Assembly (NCBI RefSeq): GCF_000186885.1
Contig: NC_014972.1
Span: 330,001 to 362,000 of the forward strand
Length of the DNA: 32,000 nucleotides
Reading direction: 5' to 3'
From: Desulfobulbus propionicus DSM 2032
GTDB lineage: Bacteria; Desulfobacterota; Desulfobulbia; Desulfobulbales; Desulfobulbaceae
Position numbers and translations under genes: made by a program. How positions within the stretch are numbered: the first letter of the stretch is position 1; the number at the start of each line of letters is the position of its first letter. Under the pieces are notes generated by a model. It was not told the DNA's origin and did not search any database. It saw nothing but the letters and a program-made list of their open reading frames with translations. Of the stretch, positions 2,708 to 29,427 are shown piece by piece.

Positions 2708-2708
2708 A

Positions 2709-4985: not shown

Positions 4986-4989
4986 AAAT

Positions 4990-4994
4990 TAAAT
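4990..4994. repeat. Candidate target-site duplication TAAAT (left copy)
   Basis: The same 5-mer recurs at 6275-6279, immediately outside the candidate IS ends. The exact IS ends are uncertain. Confidence 0.35.
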
Positions 4995-10055: not shown

Positions 10056-11040
10056 CGCGAGTGCTGGAAAAAGAGTTTGGATAAGCTGGAATAGGCAGCG
10101 GCGCAATATCGGCCTGGCCCGCTCGGTCAACGCCACACTATACATGTCGGAACTCCGGTTGCCCCGGTGCTTCCGCCTTGTGGCGGAGTGCTTCAACTCG
10201 TGGATGATTATCCTGCGCGAAAAGCCTGATATCTGTTTTGTGATGAACCCCTCCATTTTTGCAAGCTGGTGGATGGCACGATTGAAAAAAGTCTACGGAT
10301 TTGTCCTGGTTACTGACCTGCACACCGTCAATATCCGCCTTGAGGGGCTTGACGAGAAAATTTTTTTATATTTTTTCAGAAAGGGACTTCGTGGCTCAGA
10401 TGTGGTCATTGTTACCAATCCATTGTATCGTCAAGAAATCTTGCCGTTCAATCAACAGGTCGTCTGCATTCCCGATCAACTCCCCCGATTGCTGTCAGGA
10501 TCGGTGTGTGCGAAGGGACTTGTGGCCGAGGGCAAAGGACAGGTTCCCCTCCTGGTGGTCAGTTCCTTTGCCGAGGATGAGCCCCTCGATGAATTGGTTT
10601 CCCTGGACAACGAACTCTCTCCGTTTCACCTCTACATCACAGGAAACTGGAAAAAAAGATATAAAACCCCTCCAACCACACGCCATATTACTTTTCTTGG
10701 CTATGTGGCCGATGACGTCTACGATGAACTGTTGCATACCGTTGATGGCATCATTGTTCTGACCACCGTCGAGGGCTGCCTGTGTTGTGGTGCCTATGAG
10801 GCGCTTGCCGCCGAAAAACCTTTGATCTTGTCAAGCACTAGGGCCTTGCAGGATTTTTTTGAAGATGGACCGATTTACACGGAACACGAACCTGCGGCTC
10901 TGATGGCGGCGATAAAGCAACTTGGCCGGGAAAAGACGGAACGACGACAGAAGATGATTGCTTTGAAGGCAAACATTCAGCGTAAATTCGATCAGAGTGT
11001 TGCTCAGCTTGAAGAATTGCTCTGTAAATCATTTTGTTAG
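10030..11040 (+). CDS. Divergent GT-B-like glycosyltransferase
   Basis: The ATG at 10030 is in frame with track ORF 9991.. . The C-terminal half 'ITFLGYVADDVYDELLHTVDGIIVLTTVEGCLCCGAYEALAAEKPLILSS' resembles the donor-binding half of GT1/GT4 enzymes. The N-terminal half is not recognisable. Confidence 0.55.
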   Translation: MPSLPVAVDASAGKRVWISWNRQRRNIGLARSVNATLYMSELRLPRCFRLVAECFNSWMIILREKPDICFVMNPSIFASWWMARLKKVYGFVLVTDLHTVNIRLEGLDEKIFLYFFRKGLRGSDVVIVTNPLYRQEILPFNQQVVCIPDQLPRLLSGSVCAKGLVAEGKGQVPLLVVSSFAEDEPLDELVSLDNELSPFHLYITGNWKKRYKTPPTTRHITFLGYVADDVYDELLHTVDGIIVLTTVEGCLCCGAYEALAAEKPLILSSTRALQDFFEDGPIYTEHEPAALMAAIKQLGREKTERRQKMIALKANIQRKFDQSVAQLEELLCKSFC

Positions 11041-11047
11041 GACATAG

Positions 11048-12184
11048 ATGCGCGCAAACAAAAAAATTCATATCCTCCATGTTGTGCTGACCCTTGATAT
11101 CGGCGGGCTGGAATCGCTAGTGATGGCGATGTCCAGGCGCATTGACAAAAAAAAATTCACTGTTTCTGTGCTCTGCCTGCAATATGTTGATTCGCAATAT
11201 AAAAATGAGATGGAGCGGGGTGGCATTCCAGTTTATTTGATAAAAAAAAAGGGGAAGTTCGATTTTTCTTTTATTGCGAAAATTAGAAAACTGCTCAAGG
11301 AACAACAAGTTGATGTCTTGCATTCCCACAGCGGCTGTTTCTTCAATGCTGCCTTGGCCTCACTTTTTACCGGCGTTGCCGGTGTGATCTACACGGCGCA
11401 TGGCATGCCAGTCGAGTATGGGATTAAGGCCTCTCTTGAAAATGCTATCGCCGCTTGCTTGACCACCAAACTGGTGGCGGTCTCGGAAGAGATTAAAATC
11501 CACCTAGAAAGCTGTTATCCATTTGCCCGGCGCAAGATCGAACTGATCATCAATGGGGTGGATACGGAGAAATTCAAACCTGTTAGCGATGAAGGCGATG
11601 CAGCCTCGATCAGGAAACAGCATGGCATCCCATTGAATGCCCTAGTGGTCGGATCTGTCGGTAGATTGGAACCGGTAAAAAACTATCAGATGCTTGTGCG
11701 ATCGTTTGCATTAGCCAATCACAATGCGCAAAAGCCGCTCCACCTCGTTTTTATCGGTGACGGCGGTGAGCAGAATACACTTGTCAATTTGAGCAGAGAA
11801 CTAGGCTTAGAGGGAAATGTGAGTTTTCTTGGCATGCAGTATAATCTCCATCTTCTGGTCCCCATGCTCGATATCTTTGTGTTGAGTTCTTTATCGGAGG
11901 GTACATCCATCTCTCTGCTTGAAAGTCAGTCGGCAGGCATTCCGGCGGTGGTCACCAATGTCGGGGGCAATAATAAGATCATCGAGGATGGGTATAATGG
12001 CTTTCTTTGTGAAGTGAATGACATCAACGCCATGGCCAGTGAAATCGAGCTCATGGCAAAGGATGATATGCTGCGCCACCGCATGGGCCGCAGCAGCCGC
12101 CATGTGGTGGAGGAAAAGTTCAGTCTGAAACATATGATGGGTTTGTATGAAGAACACTATGTTGCTTTACACCAGTCTCACTGA
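11048..12184 (+). CDS. Glycosyltransferase, GT-B fold (GT4 family)
   Basis: It has 'LDIGGLESLV' at the N-terminus and the EX7E region 'SSLSEGTSISLLESQSAGIPAVVTNVGGNNKIIEDGYNGFL'. Confidence 0.9.
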   Translation: MRANKKIHILHVVLTLDIGGLESLVMAMSRRIDKKKFTVSVLCLQYVDSQYKNEMERGGIPVYLIKKKGKFDFSFIAKIRKLLKEQQVDVLHSHSGCFFNAALASLFTGVAGVIYTAHGMPVEYGIKASLENAIAACLTTKLVAVSEEIKIHLESCYPFARRKIELIINGVDTEKFKPVSDEGDAASIRKQHGIPLNALVVGSVGRLEPVKNYQMLVRSFALANHNAQKPLHLVFIGDGGEQNTLVNLSRELGLEGNVSFLGMQYNLHLLVPMLDIFVLSSLSEGTSISLLESQSAGIPAVVTNVGGNNKIIEDGYNGFLCEVNDINAMASEIELMAKDDMLRHRMGRSSRHVVEEKFSLKHMMGLYEEHYVALHQSH

Positions 12185-12222
12185 CAAATAGACCGGCGAG
12201 CAAGGACAATCAGCTCTAAACC

Positions 12223-13305
12223 ATGCTGCGAATCGAAACAATTACCAATATAGAAGATTTTGGCCGTATCCGTGAGATGTGGAATGAATTTATTCGACAC
12301 TATTTTCCCTGGGCCTACTTTTTCGATCATGATTGGCTGGTCAAGTGGATCCGGGCCTATCTTCAGGAACCACGTATTTTCGTTTTTCTGGTCTACGATG
12401 GGCAGACCCTGATTGGAGCTGTGCCCCTGTATATCGGTAAAGAGAATTTCAGCGGTTTTCCAATCTCCCGTCTCGCCCTGCTTGGCATGGGATACGGCGT
12501 TGAAGACCTGCCCATCGCTGGTCGGCACCAGGAAGTACTGGACCTGCTGTTCGCCACGATCAACAAAACATTCCGCTGGCATCTTGCCAATTTTTCCCGT
12601 TTTACTCCTGAATTCGCAAACTCCATTGCCGGGATTGCGCACAATCGAAATATCCACATCGAGGAACGGGATATTGTTAATCCGGTCGTTCGCATCGAAG
12701 GGACCTATGCAGACTACTTTTCCGGGCGTTCCAAAAATTTTCGGGCAAATGTCCGTAAAAAAACCAACCGAATCAATTCCTGGGGCAAAATGACCGTGGT
12801 GCACAACGACACTTCGGATCTCGCCGCCCTGATCGGCAAGGTCGAGGCGATAGGCAAGGAGAGTTGGCAGGGGGAAAAAGGGGTGAATCTGGCTGCCAGC
12901 GAACAAGGCCGCCGCTTCCTCCATGACATGGTGGTCAATTTCCATGCGCGCGGCATTCTCGACATCTCCTTTATCGAGCTTAACGGCATTCCCATCGCCT
13001 ATCTGTTGGGAGCCGTGCTGGACAAAACCTGTTTTGCCATTGAGACCGCCTACCTGACGAAATACTTCGATGCCTCGCCCGGCATGCTTCTCCATCTCTA
13101 TGTTCTGGAGCGACTTTTTGACGAGAAAAAGGTCAATCTGATCGATTTCGGGTATGACGCAGCGTACAAAAGAAAATGGACCGATGATAACCGTCCGGAA
13201 AAACAGCTCATTCTCTATAACAATGCTCTCTATCCAAAACTTATCAGAGCAGTGCGCAACAGTTCTCTCTATGAAAAACTTCAGAACCTGAAAAAAGACA
13301 GATGA
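12223..13305 (+). CDS. GNAT-fold acyltransferase, CelD/BioF2-like (FemAB-related)
   Basis: 360 aa. The size and the C-terminal block 'GIPIAYLLGAVLDKTCFAIETAYLTKYFDASPGMLLHLYVLERLFDEKKVNLIDFG' resemble the CelD/BioF2-like acetyltransferase domain. The assignment is from recall, not from a search. Confidence 0.6.
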   Translation: MLRIETITNIEDFGRIREMWNEFIRHYFPWAYFFDHDWLVKWIRAYLQEPRIFVFLVYDGQTLIGAVPLYIGKENFSGFPISRLALLGMGYGVEDLPIAGRHQEVLDLLFATINKTFRWHLANFSRFTPEFANSIAGIAHNRNIHIEERDIVNPVVRIEGTYADYFSGRSKNFRANVRKKTNRINSWGKMTVVHNDTSDLAALIGKVEAIGKESWQGEKGVNLAASEQGRRFLHDMVVNFHARGILDISFIELNGIPIAYLLGAVLDKTCFAIETAYLTKYFDASPGMLLHLYVLERLFDEKKVNLIDFGYDAAYKRKWTDDNRPEKQLILYNNALYPKLIRAVRNSSLYEKLQNLKKDR

Positions 13306-13973
13306 CCACCCTGCTCTGCACCGACCTCGACGGTCCGATCATCAACTGTGAAGAACGCTATCATCGCGTGTATTGTGACTGTGTCCGAGAGTTCGGCGGC
13401 AACGCCTTGGAGCAACCCAAATATTGGAGTCTGAAACGGCAGCGGGTCAAGGAGGCGGATATTCTTCGTCTCAGCGGGGTGGATGAGAGTGGTCTTGAGC
13501 CGTGTAATGCCCTGCGAATTGCCCGGATCGAACAAAATGAATACCTTGCTGTCGATACCCTGCAAGAGGATATTTTTGCCATCCTTGCCGGTCTGCGCCC
13601 CTTCTTTTCCGGTTTGTTCTGCATCACCCTGCGAAGAAACGAAACCGCCTTACGAGAACAGCTCCGCAGCCTGGGGATTGACAGATGTTTTGATGCCGTG
13701 TTGACTGGCTACAACGAAACCGAGCCAGGATGGAAGATCAAGGCCGATCTTCTCCGTCGTCACATCGGCATGACGGCAAGAATCGACGGCGGCTGGTTTG
13801 TCGGGGATACGGAAACTGATCTGCTGGCCGGTCGTGCATTGGGGCTGCAGACCGCGGCGATGATCAATGGTATCCGGACAGAAGAGTACCTCCGGAGCCG
13901 CACACCTGATCTTGTCGTCGCATCCTTGCAAGAATTCGCCGAGCATGTGCGAGCGGGAGCGACCTACCTATGA
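13302..13973 (+). CDS. HAD-superfamily phosphatase
   Basis: The start forms an ATGA overlap. HAD motif I is 'CTDLDGPI' and motif IV is 'VGDTETDLLAG'. Confidence 0.8.
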   Translation: MTTLLCTDLDGPIINCEERYHRVYCDCVREFGGNALEQPKYWSLKRQRVKEADILRLSGVDESGLEPCNALRIARIEQNEYLAVDTLQEDIFAILAGLRPFFSGLFCITLRRNETALREQLRSLGIDRCFDAVLTGYNETEPGWKIKADLLRRHIGMTARIDGGWFVGDTETDLLAGRALGLQTAAMINGIRTEEYLRSRTPDLVVASLQEFAEHVRAGATYL

Positions 13974-15100
13974 ACATCAAATTCGTTAACTTGCGGCGGC
14001 AATATCTTAGCCTGAAAGACGAAATCGATGGGGCTTTACGCAGGGTCATCGAGAACAGCGCCTTTATCGGGGGCGAGGAGGTCAGCCGGTTCGAGGAAAA
14101 TTTCGCGGCTGCCTGCGGTACACGATTCTGTGTCGGGGTAGGAAACGGCACAGATGCCCTCTTCATTGCTCTCAAGGCCATGGGCGTCGGGCAGGGCGAT
14201 GAAGTGGCCACTGTGGCCAATTCCTATTTCGCCACTTCGGAAGCGATTGTCATGGCCGGAGCACGGCCCGTTTTTGTCGACTGTGATCCGGTCACCTTTA
14301 CCATGGATGTGCAAAAACTTGCCGCATGCCTGAAAGAACGCATTGAGGTGAAAAAGAAAAGGGTCAAGGCTATATTGCCGGTCCACCTTTATGGCCGAAT
14401 GGCTGCAATGGACCCGATCCTGGATCTTGCCCGGCATTATGGCTTGCGCGTGATTGAAGATTGCGCTCAAGCCCATTTGGCCGAATATCGTGGGAAAAAA
14501 GCAGGAAGCCTTGGCGATGCCGGCTGTTTCAGCTTCTACCCCAGTAAAAACCTCGGGGCCTTCGGCGATGCCGGCGCGATAACAACCAACGACCCCGTTC
14601 TGGCGGCGGATATGCGCATGTTCGCCAACCATGGCCAGGCCTCGCGTTACGATCACAGGATGGCCGGAATCAACAGCAGGCTGGATGGATTGCAGGCAGC
14701 GGTGCTTAACGTCAAGCTGCCCTTTTTGCTCCAATGGAGCAAATCCCGGCGCACGCAGGCCATGCTTTATCATCGTCTGTTGGGCGATATTGATGGCCTG
14801 TTGCTGCCGGACATTCCTTCGGACGGCTCTCATGTGATGCATCTCTATGTCGTTCGGGTACAGCATCGTGAACAGGTTATGGCTCGGCTTGCCGAGGAGG
14901 GTATTCCCACTGTTGTCCATTATCCGACCGCATTGCCGAATCTTCCTGCCCATGCCGATCTCGGATATACACCGGACGATTTCCCGGTTGCCTCTCTTCT
15001 GGCACGAGAAGTATTGAGCCTGCCCATGTATCCGGAATTGAAAGAACTTGAAATCGTTGCCGTTTGTGACGCTCTTCGCTTCATTTACAATGAAGGATAG
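13970..15100 (+). CDS. DegT/DnrJ/EryC1/StrS (ArnB-like) PLP-dependent sugar aminotransferase
   Basis: The start forms an ATGA overlap. Motifs are 'GNGTDALFIALKA' and 'FSFYPSKNLGAFGDAGAITTND' (Schiff-base Lys). The product is 376 aa. Confidence 0.9.
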   Translation: MNIKFVNLRRQYLSLKDEIDGALRRVIENSAFIGGEEVSRFEENFAAACGTRFCVGVGNGTDALFIALKAMGVGQGDEVATVANSYFATSEAIVMAGARPVFVDCDPVTFTMDVQKLAACLKERIEVKKKRVKAILPVHLYGRMAAMDPILDLARHYGLRVIEDCAQAHLAEYRGKKAGSLGDAGCFSFYPSKNLGAFGDAGAITTNDPVLAADMRMFANHGQASRYDHRMAGINSRLDGLQAAVLNVKLPFLLQWSKSRRTQAMLYHRLLGDIDGLLLPDIPSDGSHVMHLYVVRVQHREQVMARLAEEGIPTVVHYPTALPNLPAHADLGYTPDDFPVASLLAREVLSLPMYPELKELEIVAVCDALRFIYNEG

Positions 15101-15170
15101 CGAACAATTCTTGACCGGATGAAAAAATCAAAACGGTTTTCGGAAGCGAAGCCGGACATTTGCCGGCCGC

Positions 15171-16157
15171 ATGGAGAGAGGAATGAATGTTGATAATCTG
15201 ATATCTGTGGTGGCGGTAGTCAGGAATCATGCCGACATAATCAAGGAATTTATTGACGACTTGACCGAAACTTTAAGCCGGTTCTACTCCAATTACGAAA
15301 TCGTGCTGGTCGATAACGGCTCCACTGATTCCACGGTAGAAAAGATCCAGGGGCTGCAGAAAGAGGTGCGTAATGTTCGACTGATCGTTCTTTCCCGCCA
15401 GTACAGTGAGGAAATTACATACATTGCAGCGCTGGAAAATTGTATTGGGGATTTCGTGACCCTGATTGATCCCTGTTTCGATCCTCCACAACAGATTCCC
15501 CAGATGATCGCCAAGTCGCAATCCGGCTACGATGTGGTCATTGCCGAAAGTAAAGGTGATGCGGATAAAGGTATTATCGATCGAGTGGGGTCGAAGATTT
15601 TTTTCATGATAAGCAAATATCTGACTGGTTACGATGTCTCCCCAAGTTTCTCAAAGTTCATTGTGCTCAGTCGCCGGGCAGTCAATTCCATCACTCGAAT
15701 CAAAGACCGTAACCGCTATCTCAAGTTTTTACTGTTGGAAATAGGCTTCAAGCGGATTTCGATTCCCAGCTCATCGATCAACCGCCGATATTATAGACCC
15801 AACCAGAATTATTTCAGTGCGTTTGCCTTTGCCATCGAGGCGATCGTCTCCAATTCAGAAAAACTGATCAGGCTGGCTGCACTCACCGGTTTTTTTGCCG
15901 GCCTGCTCAATCTTTGCTATGTCCTCTACGTGCTGGTCGGCTATCTCCTCTATCATAATCAGATCGCCGCAGGGTGGACATCGACGCAGGTGGTCGGTTC
16001 CACGATGTGGTTTCTTCTCTTTTTGATCCTGGCGATTATAGGAGAATATCTGGCGAGAGTATTGCGGGCTACTCGAGGAGGTGATCTCTATTACATCGCC
16101 GACGAGTCGAACAGTTCGGTCTGTCCCTCTGATATCGAGAGAAAAAATGTCATCTGA
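15171..16157 (+). CDS. Family-2 glycosyltransferase with two C-terminal TM helices (ArnC/GtrB polyprenyl-phosphate glycosyltransferase architecture)
   Basis: GT2 motifs are 'ISVVAVVRNH' and 'EIVLVDNGSTDST'. Two C-terminal hydrophobic helices are 'LAALTGFFAGLLNLCYVLYVLVGYLL' and 'MWFLLFLILAIIGEYLA'. The true start may be the ATG at 15183, which is preceded by GGAGAGAGG. Confidence 0.8.
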   Translation: MERGMNVDNLISVVAVVRNHADIIKEFIDDLTETLSRFYSNYEIVLVDNGSTDSTVEKIQGLQKEVRNVRLIVLSRQYSEEITYIAALENCIGDFVTLIDPCFDPPQQIPQMIAKSQSGYDVVIAESKGDADKGIIDRVGSKIFFMISKYLTGYDVSPSFSKFIVLSRRAVNSITRIKDRNRYLKFLLLEIGFKRISIPSSSINRRYYRPNQNYFSAFAFAIEAIVSNSEKLIRLAALTGFFAGLLNLCYVLYVLVGYLLYHNQIAAGWTSTQVVGSTMWFLLFLILAIIGEYLARVLRATRGGDLYYIADESNSSVCPSDIERKNVI

Positions 16158-17352
16158 ATCGGGGACAGAAAGCCGCTTTGACGCAATAATCATCGGTGGC
16201 GGATTCTACGGCTGTTGTATTGCCTTGGTCCTCCGAAATTTCTGCGACAGGATTCTTCTTGTCGACAAAGAAAAAGACCTGCTGCTGCGAGCCTCGGCAA
16301 TCAACCAGGCCAGGGTGCACACCGGCTATCACTATCCCCGGAGTTTGGTAACGGCAATCAGGTCATTTGTCAACTTCCCTCGTTTTCTCCTTGATTTCAA
16401 AGGATGCATTTATGATGAATTCGTGAAGCTGTACGCCATTGCGCGACGGGGATCAAAGGTAAACGCCTTTCAGTTTCATGAAACGTTTAAAAGAATCGGT
16501 GCCCCCATAGAGATCGCTCCGGTGCGATATACAAAATTGTTCAACGCCGATACGATCGAAGAGGTTTTCCTGGTTCGGGAAGTGGCATTTGATGCCGCCA
16601 AGTTACGGGAGATTCTTCGCGAACGATTGGACAGGGCTGGGATCGAACTCAGCATGGAGACAGAGGTCCACAAAGTGGCTGGAAACCAAGAGGGCTTCGT
16701 CGATATCCTGCTCTCCAATGGTCTGCGGTTCACGGCTGGCAAGGTCTTTAACTGCACATACTCCCGGATCAATACACTGTTGAAAAATTCAGGCCTCCCT
16801 CTGTTGTCCCTGAAACACGAATTGACAGAAATGCCGCTGGTGGAGATGCCAGAGGAACTGAAAAATGTGGGCATCACCGTCATGGATGGGCCTTTTTTTT
16901 CCTTGATGCCCTACCCTTCGCTGAACCTGCATTCCTTTCCCCACGTACGCTATACGCCCCATTACGAGTGGCGCGACATGGAACAATGCATTGATGGTCA
17001 TCAATTATTACGTACGGCTGACCTGAAAACCCATTTTCCCTTCATGGTCAAGGATGCGGCCCGCTATATGCCGCTGATCGGCGAAGTCAGGTATAAAAAG
17101 TCCCTTTTTGAGGTGAAAACCGTCCTTGTTCAAAACGAAATTGATGATGGGCGACCAATTCTGTTCCGCAGGGATCATGGTCTGAAAAATTTTTCAACCG
17201 TCATGGGCGGAAAAATTGACAACATTTACGATGTTCTTGAAATGATAGGTGAAATCAAGGAGTACGCCGGATATTCTCCTAAGGGTTTGCTGCGCTATCT
17301 GAAAAATGATGGCCTCGTAAAAAGTCAGAAATCCGGAAATCACGTATCGTGA
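16147..17352 (+). CDS. FAD-dependent oxidoreductase (DAO/amine-oxidase-like)
   Basis: The ATG at 16147 is in frame with track ORF 16081.. and overlaps the GT2 end by 11 nt. The dinucleotide-binding motif is 'FDAIIIGGGFYGCCIALVL', followed by 'VDKE'. Confidence 0.75.
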   Translation: MSSESGTESRFDAIIIGGGFYGCCIALVLRNFCDRILLVDKEKDLLLRASAINQARVHTGYHYPRSLVTAIRSFVNFPRFLLDFKGCIYDEFVKLYAIARRGSKVNAFQFHETFKRIGAPIEIAPVRYTKLFNADTIEEVFLVREVAFDAAKLREILRERLDRAGIELSMETEVHKVAGNQEGFVDILLSNGLRFTAGKVFNCTYSRINTLLKNSGLPLLSLKHELTEMPLVEMPEELKNVGITVMDGPFFSLMPYPSLNLHSFPHVRYTPHYEWRDMEQCIDGHQLLRTADLKTHFPFMVKDAARYMPLIGEVRYKKSLFEVKTVLVQNEIDDGRPILFRRDHGLKNFSTVMGGKIDNIYDVLEMIGEIKEYAGYSPKGLLRYLKNDGLVKSQKSGNHVS

Positions 17353-17443
17353 AACCAGCGCGTTACGAAGCTCGAAACGTCGTTGTTGCAGTCTTTGGCG
17401 AGAACGACAACCTCGACAACCAGAACCGACAGGAAAGACTCCA

Positions 17444-18541
17444 ATGAAAAAAATATTACTGACCAGTGCCGGCGGTTCTGCGGCCTTGGGTTTCATGCGC
17501 TCCCTTCGCAAGGCTGCATCCGATTACTTTTTTATTGGTTGTGACGCAGATAAATATTATCTCGAACGTTCCGAGGCTGACGAGAAGCATCTGATCCCCC
17601 TGGCCTCCAGCCCTCACTATCGGAATATTCTTCTCGAAATCATCGAGGAAGCGAAACCCGATATGATCCACACCCAAACCGATGTGGAGGTTCACCGTCT
17701 TTCGGCCATGCGAGACGACTTTGACCGTCTCGGAATAAAGTATTTTCTGCCGGATCATGAAACCATCGAAATCTGTCTGAGTAAATTTCGCTCCTATGAA
17801 AAATGGCTGCAGGCAGGACTGACCGTACCGGCTACCCATTACCTGCATACACCGGACGACCTGCGACGAGCCTTTGACCAATATGGATCCCCGGTGTGGA
17901 TCAGGGAAGACAAGGGAGCTTTTGGCAAGGGCTCTTTGCCGGCTGAAAGTTTCGAGGAAGCAAAGTTGTGGATCGACGTTCGTAAGGGTTGGGGGAGTTT
18001 TACCGCCGCCGAGATGCTCGACCCCACGTCAATGGTCACTTGGCAGTCGATCTGGCACAAAGGGGTGCTGGTCGTCGCCCAGACGCGCAAACGGCTTTAC
18101 TGGGAGTTCGGCAACAGGGCACCATCCGGCGTCACCGGACTTACCGGTGCCGGGGTGACCATTTCCGACCCCAATGTCGATCGCATCGCCCAGCAGACAA
18201 TTCTAGCTGTCGATCCTTCTCCCCACGGCATTTTCAGTGTCGATATGACCTACAACAGAGTTGGAGTGCCCAATCCCACAGAAATCAACATCGGCCGTTT
18301 TTTCACCACTCATCATTTCTTCAGCGAGGCGGGCTTAAACATGCCGCACATCTTCACCTCCATAGCCCTGGGGGGGAGCGCGCCATTTTTTGAAAAGAAA
18401 ATCAATCCATTGCCCGAAAACTTGGTATGGATACGCGGCCTGGACTTTCTGCCCAAGCTTTCCACCCTCGAGGAAGTGGAAAAACACGAGGAACGCCTGC
18501 AACGCCGTCTGAACCGCATCGGCAACACGAAAACACCATGA
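17444..18541 (+). CDS. ATP-grasp family ligase
   Basis: AGGAAAG lies upstream of the ATG. The N-terminal 'KKILLTSAGGSAALGFMRSL' is a pre-ATP-grasp domain. Other motifs are 'SPVWIREDKGAFGKGS' and the Mg/ATP-site-like 'PTEINIGRF'. Confidence 0.7.
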   Translation: MKKILLTSAGGSAALGFMRSLRKAASDYFFIGCDADKYYLERSEADEKHLIPLASSPHYRNILLEIIEEAKPDMIHTQTDVEVHRLSAMRDDFDRLGIKYFLPDHETIEICLSKFRSYEKWLQAGLTVPATHYLHTPDDLRRAFDQYGSPVWIREDKGAFGKGSLPAESFEEAKLWIDVRKGWGSFTAAEMLDPTSMVTWQSIWHKGVLVVAQTRKRLYWEFGNRAPSGVTGLTGAGVTISDPNVDRIAQQTILAVDPSPHGIFSVDMTYNRVGVPNPTEINIGRFFTTHHFFSEAGLNMPHIFTSIALGGSAPFFEKKINPLPENLVWIRGLDFLPKLSTLEEVEKHEERLQRRLNRIGNTKTP

Positions 18542-19287
18542 AGAGCATCGGAACCAACAAGAGCGCCTATTTTGTTCCTGTTTTCAACCAGGTTCGCGAA
18601 CTTCCCCAGGTCCTCGACGAGATAAGGGTGGCGAATGTTCCCTGCGACACCTTTATATTTGTCAACGACGGTTCGACCGACGGATCGGAACAGGTTCTCG
18701 CCGATTATGGTTACTCTTGGTTGACCAATGAAAAAAGGATGGGACTCGGCTATTGCTACATGAAGGCGCTTGATTGGGCGCTTGAACATGGGTACTCTTT
18801 TTTCGGGACTATGGCAGCCAACGGCAAGATGCTCCCGTCGGAGATGCCTCGCCTACTCGGGCCGGTGATGCGGGGAGAAGTGGACTATGCCACCGGTAGC
18901 CGTTTTCTGCAGGGGGGCGCCTCGCCAAATCTTCCAGCTTTTCGACGGACCATGATCCCGTTCGTCAACCACTACGTTCATTTTCTTACCGGAGCGCGCC
19001 TGACTGACGCAACCTGCGGTTATCGGGCCTTTTCACTCGATATCATCCGCAAGGCCAATTTTGACTGGCACAAACCGTGGATGTACGCTTACGGCTTTGA
19101 AAGCTATCTCTATGCCAAGGTCCTGCTGTCAGAAACTATACGATGGCATGAGGTCCCCATAACCATGCGTTATCCTCAAAAAGGTGTTCCCTACAGCAAG
19201 ATCGTCCCCTTCAAGGGTTGGTATGACATGTTGAAACCCTGGCTCATAGCCCGCCTTGACGGCTACAGTTTGGACGAGAGGATTTGA
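18538..19287 (+). CDS. Family-2 glycosyltransferase, soluble DPM1-like
   Basis: The ATG at 18538 forms an ATGA overlap with the ATP-grasp stop; the track ORF start at 18427 lies inside the previous gene. GT2 motifs are 'YFVPVFNQ' and 'FIFVNDGSTDGSEQVL'. No TM segment is apparent. Confidence 0.8.
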   Translation: MKSIGTNKSAYFVPVFNQVRELPQVLDEIRVANVPCDTFIFVNDGSTDGSEQVLADYGYSWLTNEKRMGLGYCYMKALDWALEHGYSFFGTMAANGKMLPSEMPRLLGPVMRGEVDYATGSRFLQGGASPNLPAFRRTMIPFVNHYVHFLTGARLTDATCGYRAFSLDIIRKANFDWHKPWMYAYGFESYLYAKVLLSETIRWHEVPITMRYPQKGVPYSKIVPFKGWYDMLKPWLIARLDGYSLDERI

Positions 19288-19290
19288 TAA

Positions 19291-20379
19291 TTGGGTTCCG
19301 CCAGAATGTTTTTCTCCACCTTCATGGGGATAGCCCTGTCGGCGGCCTTGTTTTACCTGGCATTCCGGAATGTTCCTTTGCGGGAATTAATCCTCTATCT
19401 CCGCCAGGTTGAGATTGGCTGGATAGCTCCTTCCCTAATGGTGATATTAGGCGCTTTTTTTATCCGAGCGGAACGTTTGCGTCTTATTATCTCTGCATCG
19501 CATCCTCTCTCGTTTTCCCCGGTGTATCATCCCCTTGCTATCGGTTATTTGGCCAACTGCATAGTACCCGGCAGACTCGGAGAAATAATTCTTCCTGTCC
19601 TACTGAAAAAGAATAAAAAGGTTCCCTTGAGTACAGGGTTGGCGGCTGTTGTGGCCGAGCGAATTTTCGACCTGATCACCTTGCTGTTGCTCTTTACCTG
19701 TGTCATTCCTCTGGTACGGCTTGCCCCTTCCCAAAGCACTTCCTTTGCCGGGTACGAATTAAGTACAGGAACCCTGCATAATCTCGCAGGCAAGATGATG
19801 ATTCTTTGTGTTTTATTGCTCCTGTGCATCAACCTCGTCACCATCCAGGCAACAAAGAATTGGATCAAAGGGATTCTTCATCGCCTTTCTTCCATGTCGT
19901 TGTTTGCCTCCTCTCCACATGCACAGTCGCGTTGGCGTAAAGCCTGCCACTTGGCCGAAACATTTTTGGACAATATTGCCTCTGGTTTTTCATTGCTACG
20001 TTCGGCGAGAAGGCTTGCGCTGTGCGTTTTTTATTCCTTGGCTATTTGGGGCCTGGTGATTTTTGCAAACTATCTGCTGACCTTTGGCTGTCCTCGAATG
20101 AGTGGCCTGAGTTATGCAGAAATCAGTGCGATGACCATTTTCATCGGTTTTTTTGTCGCGTTGCCATCGGCTCCAGGTTTTTGGGGGGTATGGGAGGCGG
20201 GGGGTATTTTTGCGCTGAGTGTGTTTGGGATCAACACAACCGATGCAGCAGGATATACTTTGCTCAACCATGTGGTGCAAATTGGCACTTTTATCGTACT
20301 CGGCGTAGTTTCCGCCTTGTTAACCGAATTTAATTGGCGAAACATGCTTGTTCAAAAATCTTCATCGCATTACGAATGA
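19291..20379 (+). CDS. Flippase-like polytopic membrane protein (LPG-synthase-TM / UPF0104 family)
   Basis: It has about 8 hydrophobic helices. The family-typical N-terminus is 'LFYLAFRNVPLRELILYL...FFIRAERLRLII'. The start is either the TTG at 19291 or the ATG at 19306. Confidence 0.65.
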   Translation: MGSARMFFSTFMGIALSAALFYLAFRNVPLRELILYLRQVEIGWIAPSLMVILGAFFIRAERLRLIISASHPLSFSPVYHPLAIGYLANCIVPGRLGEIILPVLLKKNKKVPLSTGLAAVVAERIFDLITLLLLFTCVIPLVRLAPSQSTSFAGYELSTGTLHNLAGKMMILCVLLLLCINLVTIQATKNWIKGILHRLSSMSLFASSPHAQSRWRKACHLAETFLDNIASGFSLLRSARRLALCVFYSLAIWGLVIFANYLLTFGCPRMSGLSYAEISAMTIFIGFFVALPSAPGFWGVWEAGGIFALSVFGINTTDAAGYTLLNHVVQIGTFIVLGVVSALLTEFNWRNMLVQKSSSHYE

Positions 20380-20585
20380 TATACAAAGCAGGCAAAGAGA
20401 CGTTGATAGTCTCGTGGAAATATAAAAAAACAAACCTCGTGTAGTAAAGAAACAGTTAATTCGAAGATTAAAAGGTCAATTGCACCGATTTTTTTTAACG
20501 ACAAATACAAGAAAAAAATGTTAGCTAAAATTCAATTGAATTGTTTTGATAATATAAATAAAAAACAAAGAATACTATGTAGTTT
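20380..20585 (+). promoter_or_regulatory. AT-rich 206-bp intergenic spacer, probable internal promoter region
   Basis: This is the only long non-coding gap inside the cluster other than 1568-1666, and it is strongly AT-rich with A/T runs. One sigma70-like candidate is TTCAAT (20531-20536), 16 nt, TATAAA (20553-20558). No Shine-Dalgarno sequence is evident before 20586. Confidence 0.3.
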
Positions 20586-22190
20586 ATGCATTTTTTTCAT
20601 ATTGATTTAAAGTTCCATATTCTTTTTTCACTTTTTCTCTGCGCTGCTCTCGGTTTGCGCATCCTTTTCTATCAAGGTCCTTCTGCTGCCGATGATATGA
20701 TCTATTTTTCGGTTGTCGAAAAGCTTCTTGCTGGAAAGGATGTGGGCGAAACGATTACCACTGCAGGCCATTGGGGTGCGCGAACAGGAATGGTCTTTCC
20801 GCTCTGGGGCGTGATGAAGTTTGCCGGCGTATCCGAGGCCGCTTCAATGATCTATCCCCTGGTCCTTTCCGCCGCAACCATGGTTCTGATCTATTTCTCC
20901 GGTTTCAACCTGTTCGGCCCCGCTCCGGCCTTGATTGCCCTTGCATCCTACGCCCTTTTGCCCCTGGATGTTCATTATGCAGGAATCATGTACCCGGATG
21001 GTCCGGTGGTCTTTTTCAGTTTTCTTTCGTTGTATCTGCTGTTTTTGGTATCTGGCTCAACAAAATTCTCCGTATGGGCTCCGCTTCTGGCCGGAATTTC
21101 TCTCGGCTTGGGATATTGCATCCGCGAAACATCGATCCTGCTCTTCATCATCGTGCCACTTCTTTTTGTGCCCGCGAAAAACAAGGTTGCCTACTGCAAG
21201 TCAGTGGTGCTGTTCGGCATTGGATTCGCACTGGTCCTAGCATGTGAGATGCTCTTATTTTGGTTTTTGACGGATAACTTGTTTGCCCGTTTTCAAATAC
21301 TCACCCAAAAAACCCAGGTGCTGACACCACATCAATATCCTTTCATTCCCCGGTTCCACAGTTACTTCTGGGACGGCCCCATCCTACTTTTTGCCACCTA
21401 CTGGATGGCGCCGTTGCTGATTCCTCTTGTTCTCATTGCTGCCCCTTTTGCCTTCCTATGGGAACGGCAATACACCGACCAGCGAAAGGAGGACGGGAAG
21501 GTACTGTGGTTGGCCATTCTCGCTCTCGCTGTTCTCCTTTTTTTTATTTATGCCCCAGTGATCGGCTTTACCAAGCCGTTGGAGCGGGATGAGCGATATT
21601 ATTTGATTGTCATGCCGTTGTTCGCTCTGCTTTTCGGCGTCATGGTAGATCATGTTTTCCGATCGGGGAAGCTATGGAAAAAATTTGCGATTTTCACGCT
21701 GGTCATTAATTTAATCCTCTCGCTTTTTGCCCTTGGGTGCATTGTCAATAAAAACTCCATCGGCTTGACAGAGATCCATGCGTTTATACATGCAACTCCT
21801 GCCGCAAAGTACCTGCTTCCAGAAGCGTTGGCTCCTGCGTTACGCCTGAAGGTCGGTGGTGCGACAGAGTCGGAGAAAATAACGTCCTATCGGTACAGCG
21901 ATAATCCAATTTTACCAGTCCAAGGCTTAAGCGATCAGGCATATCTCTTTTACATTCCCTATCTTCATCGCATCCAACCAGATTGGACGGGACCCATGCA
22001 CTGGCCGGCAGAGCGTTATGTGTTATGGAAGGTGTTGCACACCGAATCTTCCCTTTCTTGCCGCCTCTTACAGCAAGTCCGCTTGCTCGACGCTCTGCCT
22101 GAATTTTTCTCCAAGAGAGTATGCGTTTCCCCGGATGTCCACGTATATACATTCAGACAAACCACTACTAGCTTTTCCGGCCATGACTGA
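20586..22190 (+). CDS. GT-C fold membrane glycosyltransferase (ArnT / PMT_2-like)
   Basis: 534 aa with at least 10 hydrophobic helices. An acidic 'AADDMIYF' motif follows TM1, the position of the GT-C catalytic DxD/ExD loop. The soluble C-terminal domain spans about aa 400-534. Confidence 0.7.
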   Translation: MHFFHIDLKFHILFSLFLCAALGLRILFYQGPSAADDMIYFSVVEKLLAGKDVGETITTAGHWGARTGMVFPLWGVMKFAGVSEAASMIYPLVLSAATMVLIYFSGFNLFGPAPALIALASYALLPLDVHYAGIMYPDGPVVFFSFLSLYLLFLVSGSTKFSVWAPLLAGISLGLGYCIRETSILLFIIVPLLFVPAKNKVAYCKSVVLFGIGFALVLACEMLLFWFLTDNLFARFQILTQKTQVLTPHQYPFIPRFHSYFWDGPILLFATYWMAPLLIPLVLIAAPFAFLWERQYTDQRKEDGKVLWLAILALAVLLFFIYAPVIGFTKPLERDERYYLIVMPLFALLFGVMVDHVFRSGKLWKKFAIFTLVINLILSLFALGCIVNKNSIGLTEIHAFIHATPAAKYLLPEALAPALRLKVGGATESEKITSYRYSDNPILPVQGLSDQAYLFYIPYLHRIQPDWTGPMHWPAERYVLWKVLHTESSLSCRLLQQVRLLDALPEFFSKRVCVSPDVHVYTFRQTTTSFSGHD

Positions 22191-22334
22191 AACCATTGAC
22201 ATCCACTGCACCAACAAGGGTGCTTCACCGCTGCAGCATTATCCCGTACAGGTTGGCTACCTTTTGGCCGAACTCTCCTGACATCGGCCGAGCAGCAACT
22301 CTACCTGGTTGACGAAACCGGTCGTTCAAAACCT

Positions 22335-24806
22335 TTGCAAACCTTCCCGCTGGCCTTGTGGCCGGATGGCAGCATCAAATGGCTGCTGGTCGATTTTTTT
22401 GTTGATTTACCAGGGAACACACAGAGAACTTACACATTGGTTCGTCATCCGGAGCCGCCGCCCTCAGCCTTCCCTGTTGTCATCTGCCATCAAAGCGTGG
22501 AGAGCTGGATCGTCGAGACCGGTACCGCCGAATTTATGGTCAACACCCGCATCCTGAAGCCCTTTGATCAGGTCTCGATTGGCGTCAATAGCCACCACAG
22601 GACCAAAGCTATCGAGTCCAGCCAGTTATGTTTGCTCGATGATCAGGGCAGGAATCTCGATGCACGCATTGAGACCCTGGTACTCGAGACTTGCGGAGCT
22701 GTACGTTGTACTGTGGTGGCCTGCGGGACCATGATCGACGCAGCGGAGAAAACACTTGGCTTCGAGGCTCGCTTGCATTTTTATCAGGGGACCGCTCAAA
22801 CCACCATAGAGTTCAGGCTCCATAATCCGCAAGCAGCCCGGCATTTTGGTGGCCTTTGGGACCTTGGTGACCCAGGATCCTTTTTTTTCAAGGAGTGCGG
22901 ATTTCGTTTTACTCTCCCTCGGCAACCGATGCATTTTTCATGGCAAATGGAATCAGGCGATCCTTGGTACGAGCTGGGTCCGGGGGAAAACTGGACCGTC
23001 TACCAGGAATCCAGTGGTGGCGATCACTGGAACAGTCCCAATCATCGCAACCATCAAGGCAAGGTGCCGCTCACCTTTCGCGGGTACAAGGTTCTGGACG
23101 ATCAGGGGGAGGTGACGCATGGTGATCGGGCAGAACCGGTCCTGGTGTGCCAAATGGATTCCGGGGCGGTCCTTTCGACGTATATATCAAACTTTTGGCA
23201 AAAATTTCCAAAAAGCATTACCGGAGGCGGGCAAGAGCTGGTCATCGGGCTTTTCCCCGGAGCATTTCCGGACCTGCACGAACTGCAGGGTGGTGAACAG
23301 GCGACCAATCACATCTGGCTCGATTGCGCCGCCGATCCCAAGACCGCTGCGTTTGGCAACGCCATGGTAACGGTCCAGGCGGATGAAGCCTGCCTGATCC
23401 GATCCGCCGTATTCAAGGATTTTTCATGGAGCAAGGAGGACACTCCGTTCTCCGAACTGCTTCGGGAAGGTCTTGAGGGAACAAGAGGCTTCTACGCCAA
23501 GCGGGAGATGATCGACGAGTATGGCTGGCGCCATTTCGGCGAGTTGTATGCGGATCATGAATCCGCTCAAAGTCCTGACATCCCTTTTTTTATCTCACAT
23601 TACAACAACCAGTACGATCCGTTGTACGGGATGTATCGGCAGTACTTGACCAGTGGCGACGAGCGCTGGCGGCAACTGGCCGCCGATCTGGCCGCCCATG
23701 TGGCCGATATTGACATCAACCACACGAACAGGGACCGTGAGGAATATAACCACGGCCTTTTCTGGCACACCGATCATTATCTCGATGCAGGTACTGCAAC
23801 CCACCGCATGGCTTCACGCGAACACCTGCTCAAAAAGAATCCCGCCTTCTGCGGCGGCGGTCCGGGCGCCGAGCATTGCTACACTTCCGGACTGGCAGTG
23901 CATTATCTGCTCACCGGTGATCCCCGTTTCAAAGAACTGGTTCTCCAGTTGGCCGACTGGTGCTATCTGTCGCTTCGCGGCCCTCAAACCATTCTGGCTG
24001 CATTGTTGCGTGCGCTCAAAGGCGCAAAGACCCTTGCCCGGCAACAGGGCAGCCCACGACTATGGCACCGTTTCCCTCTCACCAGGGGCACGGGCAATTG
24101 CATCAAATCCAACCTCGACGCTTTTGATCTCAGTGGAGACCGCCGCTATCTCGACCGAGCCGCATCGCTGATCCGGCAGACGGTGCATCCATGCGATCCG
24201 CTGGAGGAGCGCGACCTGCTCAACGCCGAAGTCGCCTGGTCCTATACGGTTTTCCTGGCGGCGGTGGGAATGTTTCTTGCCAAGAAGGCAGAATGGAACG
24301 AATACGACAATGCCTATGCCCATAGCCGCGAATCCTTTCTCCATTACGCCCGGTGGATGGCTAGGCATGAATATCCCTATCTTGACAACCAGGTCATTCT
24401 GGAATTTCCCGAAGTGACCTGGGCAGGGCAAGACATGCGCAAAAGTGTTCTCTTTTACTTCGCCGCCGGATTGTGCGACAATCCCGAAGAGCAGTCGCTG
24501 TATTTGGAGCGTTGCCGCTTCTTTCTTGACGCAGCCGCCAGGGAAATGCACAATTCCGATGCGAGCCTGTACACTCGACCCTTGGCACTTGTTCTGCAAA
24601 ACAGTTGGGTGGCCGGGAAGGCAGGCAATGCCCCACCTCTGGCCGACTCACCAGGAGAGACGGCGCGCAACCGCCGTCCTCAGGCACCCCGCCTGACGAT
24701 GTTCACCTTGCTGAAGCGTACCGCCCGCGATATGGGCGAAGTGCTCCGGGAGACCAACCTGAAACGGGAACAACGATGGCTGGCGGCCCGGTTGAGAGAT
24801 CGTTGA
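22335..24806 (+). CDS. Large uncharacterised protein, possible beta-sandwich + alpha/alpha-toroid glycan lyase/hydrolase; N-terminus apparently frameshifted
   Basis: This is an 823-aa ORF from the TTG at 22335. The frame is open upstream to 22200 and encodes sensible sequence ('SAEQQLYLVDETGRSKP') with no start codon. A 32-codon ORF (22183-22281, ATGA-coupled to the previous gene) looks like the true N-terminus. The C-terminal half 'WRHFGELYADHE..HYNNQYDPLYGMYRQYLTSGDERWRQLAADLAAHVADIDINHT..NHGLFWHTDHY' resembles toroid-type glycan-active enzymes from recall. Confidence 0.8.
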   Translation: MQTFPLALWPDGSIKWLLVDFFVDLPGNTQRTYTLVRHPEPPPSAFPVVICHQSVESWIVETGTAEFMVNTRILKPFDQVSIGVNSHHRTKAIESSQLCLLDDQGRNLDARIETLVLETCGAVRCTVVACGTMIDAAEKTLGFEARLHFYQGTAQTTIEFRLHNPQAARHFGGLWDLGDPGSFFFKECGFRFTLPRQPMHFSWQMESGDPWYELGPGENWTVYQESSGGDHWNSPNHRNHQGKVPLTFRGYKVLDDQGEVTHGDRAEPVLVCQMDSGAVLSTYISNFWQKFPKSITGGGQELVIGLFPGAFPDLHELQGGEQATNHIWLDCAADPKTAAFGNAMVTVQADEACLIRSAVFKDFSWSKEDTPFSELLREGLEGTRGFYAKREMIDEYGWRHFGELYADHESAQSPDIPFFISHYNNQYDPLYGMYRQYLTSGDERWRQLAADLAAHVADIDINHTNRDREEYNHGLFWHTDHYLDAGTATHRMASREHLLKKNPAFCGGGPGAEHCYTSGLAVHYLLTGDPRFKELVLQLADWCYLSLRGPQTILAALLRALKGAKTLARQQGSPRLWHRFPLTRGTGNCIKSNLDAFDLSGDRRYLDRAASLIRQTVHPCDPLEERDLLNAEVAWSYTVFLAAVGMFLAKKAEWNEYDNAYAHSRESFLHYARWMARHEYPYLDNQVILEFPEVTWAGQDMRKSVLFYFAAGLCDNPEEQSLYLERCRFFLDAAAREMHNSDASLYTRPLALVLQNSWVAGKAGNAPPLADSPGETARNRRPQAPRLTMFTLLKRTARDMGEVLRETNLKREQRWLAARLRDR

Positions 24807-24807
24807 A

Positions 24808-25812: not shown

Positions 25813-25824
25813 GGAGTAGCACGG

Positions 25825-26994: not shown

Positions 26995-26999
26995 CGGTA

Positions 27000-29415: not shown

Positions 29416-29427
29416 TAAACATAGACC

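Follow-up and report, generated by a model that had tools for sequence, protein, structure and literature searches.

The stretch of the Desulfobulbus propionicus DSM 2032 genome considered here, a window of 32,000 nt (GCF_000186885.1, NC_014972.1, positions 330,001-362,000 of the forward strand), carries at its positions 12223-22190 a block of nine genes, g1 to g9, around Despr_0344, with a tenth gene, g10, linked downstream. In the reading favoured here, held at a probability of roughly 0.55, this block would be a three-component-type periplasmic glycan-decoration module, the donor sugar of which is tailored by enzymes unseen in characterised systems. The ATP-grasp product of 17444-18541 is 100% identical to Despr_0344 of D. 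propionicus DSM 2032, and a metagenome contig (L001) is 99.5% identical to the window over 7444-23825. An initial annotation had described nine consecutive co-oriented genes of given domain types, and the list of open reading frames (ORFs) together with Pfam and NCBIfam searches bears out all nine, on the + strand and with the predicted domains:

12223-13305, + strand: g1, FemAB/CelD-like GNAT-fold acyl(aminoacyl)transferase (Acetyltransf_6 PF13480, 75 bits)
13302-13973, + strand: g2, HAD-superfamily phosphatase (Pfam HAD matches)
13970-15100, + strand: g3, DegT/DnrJ/EryC1-family pyridoxal phosphate-dependent sugar aminotransferase (PF01041, 364 bits)
15171-16157, + strand: g4, polyprenyl-phosphate glycosyltransferase of GtrB/ArnC/PgfS architecture (family 2 glycosyltransferase, GT2, with two C-terminal transmembrane (TM) helices)
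16147-17352, + strand: g5, DAO-family flavin adenine dinucleotide (FAD) oxidoreductase (PF01266)
17444-18541, + strand: g6, ATP-grasp carboxylate-amine ligase, Despr_0344 (PylC-like_N 27 bits; PRK12767 80 bits)
18538-19287, + strand: g7, small soluble GT2 (PF00535)
19324-20379, + strand: g8, UPF0104/LPG_synthase_TM flippase-like membrane protein (PF03706, 145 bits)
20586-22190, + strand: g9, GT-C glycosyltransferase (PMT_2, PF13231, 46.8 bits vs. a cutoff of 26.1)

The genes are tightly packed, with ATGA overlaps at the g1/g2, g2/g3 and g6/g7 junctions, an 11-nt overlap between g4 and g5, intergenic gaps of 70, 91, 36 (or 3) and 206 nt, and a tenth gene (22183-24806) overlapping the stop codon of the GT-C gene g9 by 8 nt; the translational coupling pairs are g1-g2-g3, g4-g5, g6-g7 and g9-g10. 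The overlapping or close boundaries first described, including the 70-, 91- and 206-nt gaps, are thus confirmed, with three 5' starts corrected from the gene calls of L001, which shorten g5 to 16147-17352 (401 aa), g7 to 18538-19287 (249 aa) and g8 to 19324-20379. The + strand is shared by every gene from 6459 to 30642, so that the block is delimited neither by orientation nor by spacing. Promoter and terminator scans over 8000-27500 returned counts at the level of shuffled sequence (24 vs. 19.3 and 23 vs. 21.8, respectively) and operon boundaries could therefore not be drawn.

Regarding the loading of the sugar onto its lipid carrier, g4 aligns over its full length to solved GtrB (PDB 5ekp, E 6.5e-33) and to ArnC (E 5e-21), with C-terminal TM helices at residues 242-260 and 273-291, and the proposal that the ORF at 15171 is of ArnC/GtrB type is thereby upheld. 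Among NCBIfam models, PgfS (146 bits, cutoff 500) and ArnC (79.5 bits, cutoff 529) both match full length and both remain below the equivalog cutoff. From these alignments, g4 is predicted to be a GtrB/ArnC-type polyprenyl-phosphate glycosyltransferase with the GtrB architecture. The second GT2, g7, has no predicted TM helix and reaches AglJ at 41.9 bits and PpgS at 39 bits in NCBIfam, as well as DPMS in PDB at E 0.0015; it is probably a second polyprenyl-phosphate sugar synthase, weakly DPM1/PpgS/AglJ-like. As a side observation, the 80 differences that separate L001 from the window are unevenly spread, about 60 of them falling in the 1.5 kb of 15160-16713, where g4 differs by 40 nt (17 aa) and g5 by 17 nt (9 aa), the figures for g3, g6 and g9 being 0-4 nt; the g4-g5 pair seems to contain a recombination tract or to be a hotspot of diversification.

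Following g7, g8 scores above the cutoff of the generic TIGR00374 model (65.7 bits) and has at least six TM helices. The description of g8 as a UPF0104/LPG-synthase-TM flippase-like protein agrees with its PF03706 match and with the recurrence of such a gene beside a small GT2 in unrelated loci, archaeal as well as bacterial (L014, L030, L082, L102 and L084), and since this adjacency recurs, the view of g7-g8 as a synthase-flippase pair gains support, g4 being for its part tied to the flavoenzyme. On these grounds g8 would be a candidate flippase.

The last gene of the block, g9, has no NCBIfam match and only nine proteins of its subfamily were found at E <= 1e-5 among the 5.8 billion proteins searched; an exhaustive profile search returned three representative clusters of full length, below which the scores drop sharply. 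An AlphaFold2 model built from nine homologues (pLDDT 71, pTM 0.74) has exclusively GT-C enzymes as its top 30 Foldseek PDB matches, i.e. ALG9, ArnT, ALG12, STT3, AglB, PglB, Pmt4, DPY19 and AftD, and the Asp-Asp pair D36/D37 in the motif ADDMIYF after TM1 is invariant. With the PMT_2 domain above its cutoff, the placement of the ORF at 20586 in the GT-C fold is sustained, and g9 is identified at fold level as a GT-C enzyme carrying a conserved Asp-Asp pair in a loop. The Nitrospirae homologue of g9 is named glycosyltransferase family 39 by NCBI. The three-component skeleton seen by the initial annotation is thus retained for its GtrB-type GT2 and GT-C parts and not for a canonical GtrA, SMR or MATE flippase.

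Between these transferases lie the presumed sugar-tailoring enzymes. Against PF01041, g3 scores 364 bits (cutoff 19.8) over residues 15-370, i.e. over the full length of the DegT family. Its scores against PDB sequences are highest for 7b0d (362 bits), followed by QdtB (287) and WbpE (285), which are taken here to be C3-aminotransferases, then by perosamine synthase (197) and ArnB (129); against the sugar-phosphate enzymes NtdA and 7kz3 (presumably KabA), it obtains about 150-157 bits. No NCBIfam equivalog is reached, the best being PseC (230.9 vs. 423.5) and ArnB remaining at 155.9 vs. 631. The scores designate g3 as a sugar aminotransferase nearest QdtB/WbpE-type enzymes; of the DegT/ArnB-type aminotransferase initially suggested, the DegT part stands and the ArnB part is not supported, with 129 bits vs. 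285-287 for QdtB and WbpE.

The AlphaFold2 model of g5 (pLDDT 84) adopts the two-domain DAO/GR2 fold and not the VAO/FAD_binding_4 fold. Its Foldseek matches are glycine/sarcosine oxidases, glycerophosphate oxidase (TM-score 0.70), L2HGDH, GlpD and opine dehydrogenase, glycerophosphate oxidase and GlpD being among the highest TM-scores and the former being also the sole sequence-level match in PDB. From its model and its genomic partners, g5 may be a sugar oxidase making a keto group. The next enzyme, g6, belongs to a family for which 3472 homologues were found and in which the solved relatives retrieved by PDB sequence and profile searches are remote only, e.g. RimK and LysX; it is predicted to be an ATP-grasp ligase of an uncharacterised and highly conserved subfamily. 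As for the first two genes, g2 carries the DLDG motif at residues 8-11, and g1 has a 49% identical homologue in L004, is present in L084 and is absent from L003 (these three loci are described below). A paralogy between g1 and the XrtA-associated FemAB of the same locus (pepcterm_femAB) was considered and rejected, no significant similarity being found between them. PDB sequence searches with g1, g2 and g9 gave nothing useful.

The block is set in a longer gene array, the other members of which are as follows:

10-4985, + strand: exosortase (5' truncated), XrtA-system deacetylase, XrtA-associated FemAB and double-GT2 synthase-like genes (Exosortase_EpsH, TIGR03006, TIGR03019)
8853-12184, + strand: three GT4 genes, an XrtA-type polysaccharide backbone set (NCBIfam stp2-like matches)
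22183-24806, + strand: g10, PcRGLX/GH127-like putative glycan-cleaving enzyme of about 874 aa, overlapping the g9 stop codon and frameshifted in the window
24808-25812, + strand: g11, NodB-type polysaccharide deacetylase, PgaB/IcaB-like (PF01522, 77.8 bits)

Within the window, the first gene of the locus is that of the exosortase, cut at the window start, and it is followed by the XrtA-system deacetylase, the FemAB and the double-GT2 synthase-like genes, an insertion sequence (IS) element, AsnB-type amidotransferase, hexapeptide acyltransferase and three GT4 genes, after which comes the module; downstream are the PcRGLX/GH127-like protein, the NodB deacetylase, a second DegT-like gene and a low-GC segment with Wzy, acyltransferase and Wzx genes. 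Exosortase_EpsH matches at 186 bits and the XrtA model TIGR03109 at 160.8 vs. a cutoff of 208, for an exosortase protein truncated by the window start; the marker proteins exceed their cutoffs, namely the deacetylase (TIGR03006, 280.2 vs. 276.2) and the FemAB (TIGR03019, 292.9 vs. 260.35). With an exosortase and these marker genes, the window is, as judged from profile matches, an XrtA/PEP-CTERM-type exopolysaccharide locus. A scan of the window found no PEP-CTERM-type ORF.

Relative to L001, g10 has a 1-nt deletion at about 22258; the frame-corrected protein of 874 aa matches PcRGLX_1st (37.9 bits vs. 22.1) and its homologue is intact at 889 aa in L084, an 85%-identical relative. The NodB gene g11 had been cast in an ArnD-like role, which is not supported: its matches are of PgaB/IcaB type (PgaB N-terminal domain, 84.8 bits), the NCBIfam ArnD model is not matched, and its homologue is placed amid backbone GT4 genes in L004, L003 having none, pointing to a member of the backbone set rather than to an ArnD analogue.

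How far the block is conserved was assessed from an alignment search with the ATP-grasp ligase, which gave 408 loci among 185,579 species genomes, the best 80 of which were fetched and compared by tblastn with all the window proteins. Among these best 80 of 408, the series HAD-DegT-GtrB-FAD-ATP-grasp-GT2-GT-C is found in the same order, at 45-74% identity, only in L003 and L004. The former is a Nitrospirae metagenome-assembled genome with an exosortase gene about 3 kb downstream. The latter is an Acidobacteriota metagenome-assembled genome, where the GT-C gene is followed by PrsK-, PrsR-, XrtA-, EpsI- and PrsT-like genes, as read from translations and gene order, and where homologues of two window GT4 genes, GT4a (57%) and GT4b (50%), and of the GNAT gene lie directly upstream of the module. 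All nine genes plus the next three are present in L084. The idea of the nine-gene set as a conserved unit holds only in part, since seven genes are syntenic in L003 and L004, whereas the GNAT and UPF0104 genes are variable, g8 being absent from both. As an aside on L003, sulfotransferase-like and APS kinase-like genes, as read from sequence, are found immediately upstream of the HAD gene (4279-5875) and hint at a sulfated polysaccharide in that organism.

The GT-C gene can also be followed on its own. On a JGI contig, ATP-grasp, GT2 and GT-C genes are followed by a sensor kinase, a sigma54 regulator and an exosortase. In L083, a 38%-identical variant, the GT-C gene comes, with two GT2 genes of GtrB architecture, directly before deacetylase, FemAB, double-GT2 and GT4b genes, the products of which are 50-55% identical to the window proteins (GT4b, 51%); an LPG_synthase_TM gene is upstream and the ATP-grasp cassette is absent. 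In all judgeable contexts, i.e. the window, L084, L003, L004, the JGI contig and L083, the g9 subfamily belongs to an XrtA/PEP-CTERM-type locus, the exosortase gene itself being seen in four of the six, and the association with exosortase loci advanced at the outset is corroborated. Since every context is of XrtA type and L083 does without the ATP-grasp cassette, the GT-C enzyme goes with polysaccharide loci of this type, and the genes for sugar tailoring can replace one another. The module as such occurs in no more than a handful of XrtA loci.

Beyond these loci, the comparisons present the block as a mosaic of two widespread uncharacterised cassettes and not as one ancient unit. In the first, cassette A, the gene order is a Gfo/Idh/MocA oxidoreductase, the ATP-grasp ligase, a short-chain dehydrogenase/reductase (SDR) or a methyltransferase alternating in the same slot, a HAD phosphatase and a DegT aminotransferase. 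The partners of the ATP-grasp gene are HAD in 63 of 80 loci, DegT in 54, a small GT2 in 26 and a Gfo-family gene in 41 loci. The best match of the Gfo protein is the model of archaeal UDP-GlcNAc 3-dehydrogenase, at 226 bits and below its cutoff. The ATP-grasp family is 49-74% identical over the 408 genome loci, including those of CPR bacteria and DPANN archaea, and 49-58% identical from Deltaproteobacteria to Patescibacteria, Dormibacterota, Omnitrophota, Woesearchaeota, Iainarchaeum, Nanoarchaeia and Methanosarcinales. The window has neither the Gfo-type dehydrogenase nor the SDR of this cassette.

The second, cassette B, is built on the flavoenzyme of the g5 family and was examined in 81 loci, namely 80 metagenome contigs and Cohnella candidum. 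The flavoenzyme is 52-60% identical in Paenibacillus, Cohnella, Bacillus, Polaromonas, Desulfovibrio and Aliarcobacter. It is accompanied by a GtrB-type GT2 (55/81 loci), a small GT2 (44-45/81), a TIM-barrel protein like 5-keto-L-gluconate/psicose epimerases (41 loci) and a short SDR-like protein (39 loci), and also by GtrA-family or SMR/ArnF-like small membrane proteins and sometimes by PMT_2 proteins. By analogy, cassette B has the appearance of a tailoring set of the oxidise-epimerise-reduce kind on a lipid-carrier glycosylation system, and would parallel DprE1/DprE2 by unrelated proteins. In Cohnella candidum (L087, CP033433, 3777689-3794834), a cultured Firmicute that would be tractable for work on this family, the cassette consists of genes for a GT2, a 260-aa protein, AP_endonuc_2, a GT2, the flavoenzyme and a small EamA-like protein; it lies directly upstream of four genes with Pfam domains fitting the dTDP-rhamnose set rmlACBD, with an SLH-domain protein nearby.

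The coupling of the flavoenzyme to the aminotransferase was judged from flavoenzyme loci flanked by 4 kb or more on each side, the DegT set being the window, L084, L003, L004, L092 and L102. Of 18 such full-flank loci, 15 contain the epimerase/reductase pair, vs. none of the six carrying DegT (Fisher p 0.005-0.01). In the metagenome locus L092, a compact and independent parallel, the order is FAD-GtrB-hexapeptide acetyltransferase-small GT2-DegT-PMT_2 GT-C, compatible with a predicted lipid-carrier route comprising oxidation, transamination and N-acetylation; the position of the acetyltransferase is taken in the window by the ATP-grasp ligase with HAD and GNAT. Because the DegT loci are without the epimerase/reductase pair and the window is without the Gfo dehydrogenase, flavoenzyme-DegT coupling is the best reading, and the early suggestion that the FAD enzyme supplies the keto group to the aminotransferase finds suggestive support in these counts and in the lack of Gfo and SDR genes in the window.

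Put together, these elements would give the following pathway. A hexose or HexNAc would be oxidised to a keto sugar by g5, replacing the Gfo-type, UDP-GlcNAc 3-dehydrogenase-like enzyme of other cassettes, and the keto group would be converted to an amine by g3. Both reactions may take place on the nucleotide sugar or, in the manner of DprE1/DprE2, on the lipid-linked one. The amine might then be N-acylated with a carboxylic acid by g6, the acid being possibly phosphorylated and its phosphate subsequently removed by g2; by analogy with the Campylobacter jejuni glucuronamide pathway, one attractive guess is an acyl donor that is phosphorylated and loses its phosphate once ligated. The GNAT enzyme g1 may attach an acyl group or modify one. 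The sugar would be carried on undecaprenyl phosphate through g4 and/or g7, flipped by g8 in Desulfobulbus and by some other protein in the relatives devoid of g8, and transferred in the periplasm by g9 to the product of the XrtA locus. As acceptor, the exopolysaccharide is more likely and PEP-CTERM proteins are less likely. In a bolder and clearly less probable version, g5 and g3 would act on the undecaprenyl phosphate-linked sugar delivered by the GtrB-type enzyme and g6 would then attach an amino or hydroxy acid, the product being an exosortase-specific matrix decoration, borne by the polysaccharide or by PEP-CTERM proteins.

Several observations weigh against the module as a donor-tailoring and periplasmic transfer pathway. 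The structural neighbours of g5 act on amino acids, glycerol-3-phosphate and 2-hydroxy acids, and since none is a sugar oxidase, the proposed sugar oxidation would be new for the DAO fold. The HAD step (g2) has no assigned substrate, the flippase-like gene is missing from L003 and L004, and there are two candidate lipid-sugar synthases (g4 and g7) for one GT-C enzyme, which leaves one role unexplained. The mutual exclusion of the epimerase/reductase pair and DegT rests on about five independent lineages, phylogenetically uncorrected, and with lineages so few and non-independent it is suggestive only. Finally, three genes of the locus bear frameshift-like lesions and an IS has been inserted, because of which the locus may be inactive or decaying in the type strain.

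These lesions, as well as the composition of the region, deserve description. The IS-type transposase gene (DDE_Tnp_1 and DUF772; 5026-6123, + strand) sits between the double-GT2 and AsnB-type amidotransferase genes, and clear terminal inverted repeats were not found around it. The XrtA-system deacetylase gene (748-1567, + strand) looks frameshifted: residues 1-197 of the 748-1395 frame cover the first 194 of 272 profile positions and the conserved DUF3473 portion at the C-terminus (GGYFRLFPY...HPWEIDPHQP) is found in the 1103-1567 frame, so that the gene is either a pseudogene or split by a sequencing error. A Wzx-type flippase ORF of 404 aa is followed by an overlapping hydrophobic ORF of 92 aa (together 29428-30917, + strand), which resembles the missing C-terminal helices of Wzx and may betray another frameshift. 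The g10 deletion, the IS and the deacetylase lesion suggest that the locus may be decaying in the type strain. At the boundary between the NodB and DegT-like genes, the GC content falls sharply from about 0.55 to 0.23-0.33 (25825-32000), over a weak DegT-like gene (0.32) also present in the 85% relative L084, Wzy (0.27), an Acyl_transf_3 gene and Wzx; this segment is probably a horizontally acquired O-antigen-type cassette.

The choice of acceptor and the chemistry of tailoring are the two points at which other explanations compete with the glycan-decoration pathway. The same machinery could serve proteins, the GT-C enzyme O-glycosylating Ser/Thr-rich PEP-CTERM proteins, the substrates of the exosortase, instead of a polysaccharide. 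The g9 subfamily is directly beside PrsK-PrsR-XrtA in L004 and on the JGI contig, PgfS is the best NCBIfam match of g4, the family 39 name given to the Nitrospirae homologue goes the same way, and a PEP-CTERM acceptor is conceivable because streptococcal GtrB/PgfS plus GT-C systems glycosylate Ser/Thr-rich extracytoplasmic regions of proteins (PMC11092751). The PgfS score, however, is 146 vs. a cutoff of 500, the window is devoid of PEP-CTERM ORFs, and the GT-C gene abuts polysaccharide genes in L083, where deacetylase, FemAB, double-GT2 and GT4 follow immediately, and glycan-hydrolase/lyase-like genes in the window, L084 and L003, which is why a polysaccharide acceptor is favoured and protein O-glycosylation is deemed unlikely, albeit less so than the other alternatives. 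A rather doubtful proposal for the chemistry is a Campylobacter-like amidation, in which the flavoenzyme, the aminotransferase and the HAD enzyme would make a small phosphorylated amine (in the style of dihydroxyacetone phosphate to serinol phosphate), the ATP-grasp ligase would join it to a uronic-acid carboxylate before dephosphorylation by the HAD enzyme, and the GtrB, GT2 and GT-C genes would form a separate side-branch system. It accounts for HAD being the most constant partner of the ATP-grasp gene (63/80 loci) and for the resemblance of g5 to glycerophosphate oxidase and GlpD, and in C. jejuni HS:2 the Cj1437 transaminase, the ATP-grasp amidoligase in the C-terminal domain of Cj1438 and the Cj1435 HAD phosphatase act in exactly that order (PMC11800379). 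What speaks against it is that comparison of g6 with the TupA-like ligase domain of Cj1438 detects no similarity (BLASTP E 1.3; hhalign, probability of 0.7%), that g3 reaches 285-362 bits with nucleotide-sugar aminotransferases vs. about 150-157 with NtdA and 7kz3, that the Gfo partner seen elsewhere best matches UDP-GlcNAc 3-dehydrogenase, that the g5 family is tied to GtrB-type GT2 genes and not to uronic-acid genes, and that UDP-glucose dehydrogenase is absent from the window.

The two remaining alternatives concern the nature of the block itself. That no dedicated module exists, the nine genes being an incidental run within a long co-directional polysaccharide array, would agree with the uniform orientation over 6459-30642, the absence of a boundary proper to the block, the promoter and terminator counts at chance and the unconserved GNAT and UPF0104 genes; yet seven genes keep their order at 45-74% identity over three phyla and sub-pairs recur independently in hundreds of loci, making mere juxtaposition very improbable. 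Least credible is an Arn-like modification of lipid A in the lipopolysaccharide by an aminosugar, with the exosortase locus adjoining by chance. It can invoke the DegT aminotransferase, the ArnC-like GT2 and the ArnT-like GT-C, ArnT being among the top structural matches, but the equivalog scores are far below cutoff (ArnB 155.9 vs. 631, ArnC 79.5 vs. 529), the window has no ArnA, ArnD or ArnE/F, g9 is without NCBIfam match and its subfamily is found only in XrtA-type loci.

Retaining the glycan-decoration pathway, the module would be a new variation on three-component periplasmic glycosylation, of which the design is known and several enzyme families are uncharacterised. Exosortase/PEP-CTERM systems occur widely among bacteria that form biofilms and flocs, hardly anything is known of their matrix chemistry, and the module points to a specific decoration step. 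It exposes two uncharacterised families, namely an ATP-grasp ligase 49-74% identical in 408 species or more, with Patescibacteria and DPANN archaea at the extremes, and a DAO-fold flavoenzyme whose link to GtrB-type transferases is seen in Firmicutes and on hundreds of contigs. Their fused arrangement offers a functional hypothesis, i.e. the flavoenzyme would make a keto sugar and the ligase would N-acylate the amino sugar, which, if true, would bring new enzymology for bacterial and archaeal glycan diversification as well as handles for glycoengineering. Should the tailoring take place on the lipid carrier, it would be the first case of all three reactions, oxidation, amination and acylation, being carried out on a carrier-bound sugar, and would provide functions for two enzyme families spread over hundreds of lineages of bacteria and archaea, CPR and DPANN among them.

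With respect to known systems, comparisons in sequence, structure and literature brought no match to a characterised pathway, as initially surmised, and the literature searched contains no description of either cassette or of the fused module. The GtrA/GtrB/GtrC systems for O-antigen glucosylation (Shigella/Salmonella phages) and their Gram-positive relatives (CsbB/YfhO, GacI/GacL) share with it a GtrB-type GT2, a flippase candidate and a GT-C enzyme acting outside the cytoplasm. The block differs in having no GtrA, SMR or MATE flippase gene, UPF0104 occupying the flippase place (in Desulfobulbus only), in its second small GT2 and five extra sugar-tailoring enzymes, and in its GT-C enzyme, which belongs to a rare PMT_2 subfamily. 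With ArnBCDEFT, which modifies lipid A with L-Ara4N, it has in common an aminosugar made by an aminotransferase, loading by an ArnC-like GT2 and transfer by an ArnT-like GT-C; it is devoid of ArnA, ArnD and ArnE/F, and is linked to exosortase loci rather than to lipopolysaccharide genes. Membership of the Arn pathway is rejected, ArnB and ArnC failing the equivalog tests and g9 matching no NCBIfam model. The XrtA/PEP-CTERM loci (TIGR03006, TIGR03019, TIGR03108 and TIGR03088 sets) share the exosortase, deacetylase, FemAB, AsnB-type amidotransferase and stp2-like GT4 genes, whereas the module proteins are below the curated NCBIfam cutoffs, except g8 with the generic TIGR00374.

As regards the tailoring, DprE1 is of the VAO/FAD_binding_4 family and g5 of the DAO fold, the resemblance between them being in the proposed role only. 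Common to the present proposal, to DprE1/DprE2, which epimerise decaprenyl-phospho-ribose, and to the GT136 pentofuranose systems are a flavoenzyme making a keto sugar (on the lipid carrier in the known cases), a second enzyme processing it and a GT-C acting beyond the membrane. The GT136 systems, of three components, have auxiliary epimerases in addition (Kelly et al., 2024, PMC11127046). Such systems start from phosphoribosyl pyrophosphate with a UbiA-like synthase, unlike the module with its GT2, and the keto group is reduced in DprE1/DprE2 systems while it would be transaminated here. In the glucuronamide pathway of C. jejuni HS:2, an aminotransferase, an ATP-grasp amide ligase and a HAD phosphatase are found together in a polysaccharide locus (PMC11800379). 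There, the substrates are small phosphorylated amines plus a uronic acid and the ligase is TupA-like; g6 was rejected as such an amidoligase and the analogy alone is kept. A similar logic is followed by WbpB/WbpE/WbpD (UDP-GlcNAc3NAcA) and GnnA/GnnB (UDP-GlcNAc3N), which proceed by 3-oxidation, 3-transamination and N-acylation. The likeness extends to the 285 bits of g3 against WbpE and to the Gfo protein of related cassettes, which resembles UDP-GlcNAc 3-dehydrogenase; where those pathways employ a Gfo dehydrogenase and an acetyltransferase, the block has in the same positions a DAO flavoenzyme and an ATP-grasp ligase.

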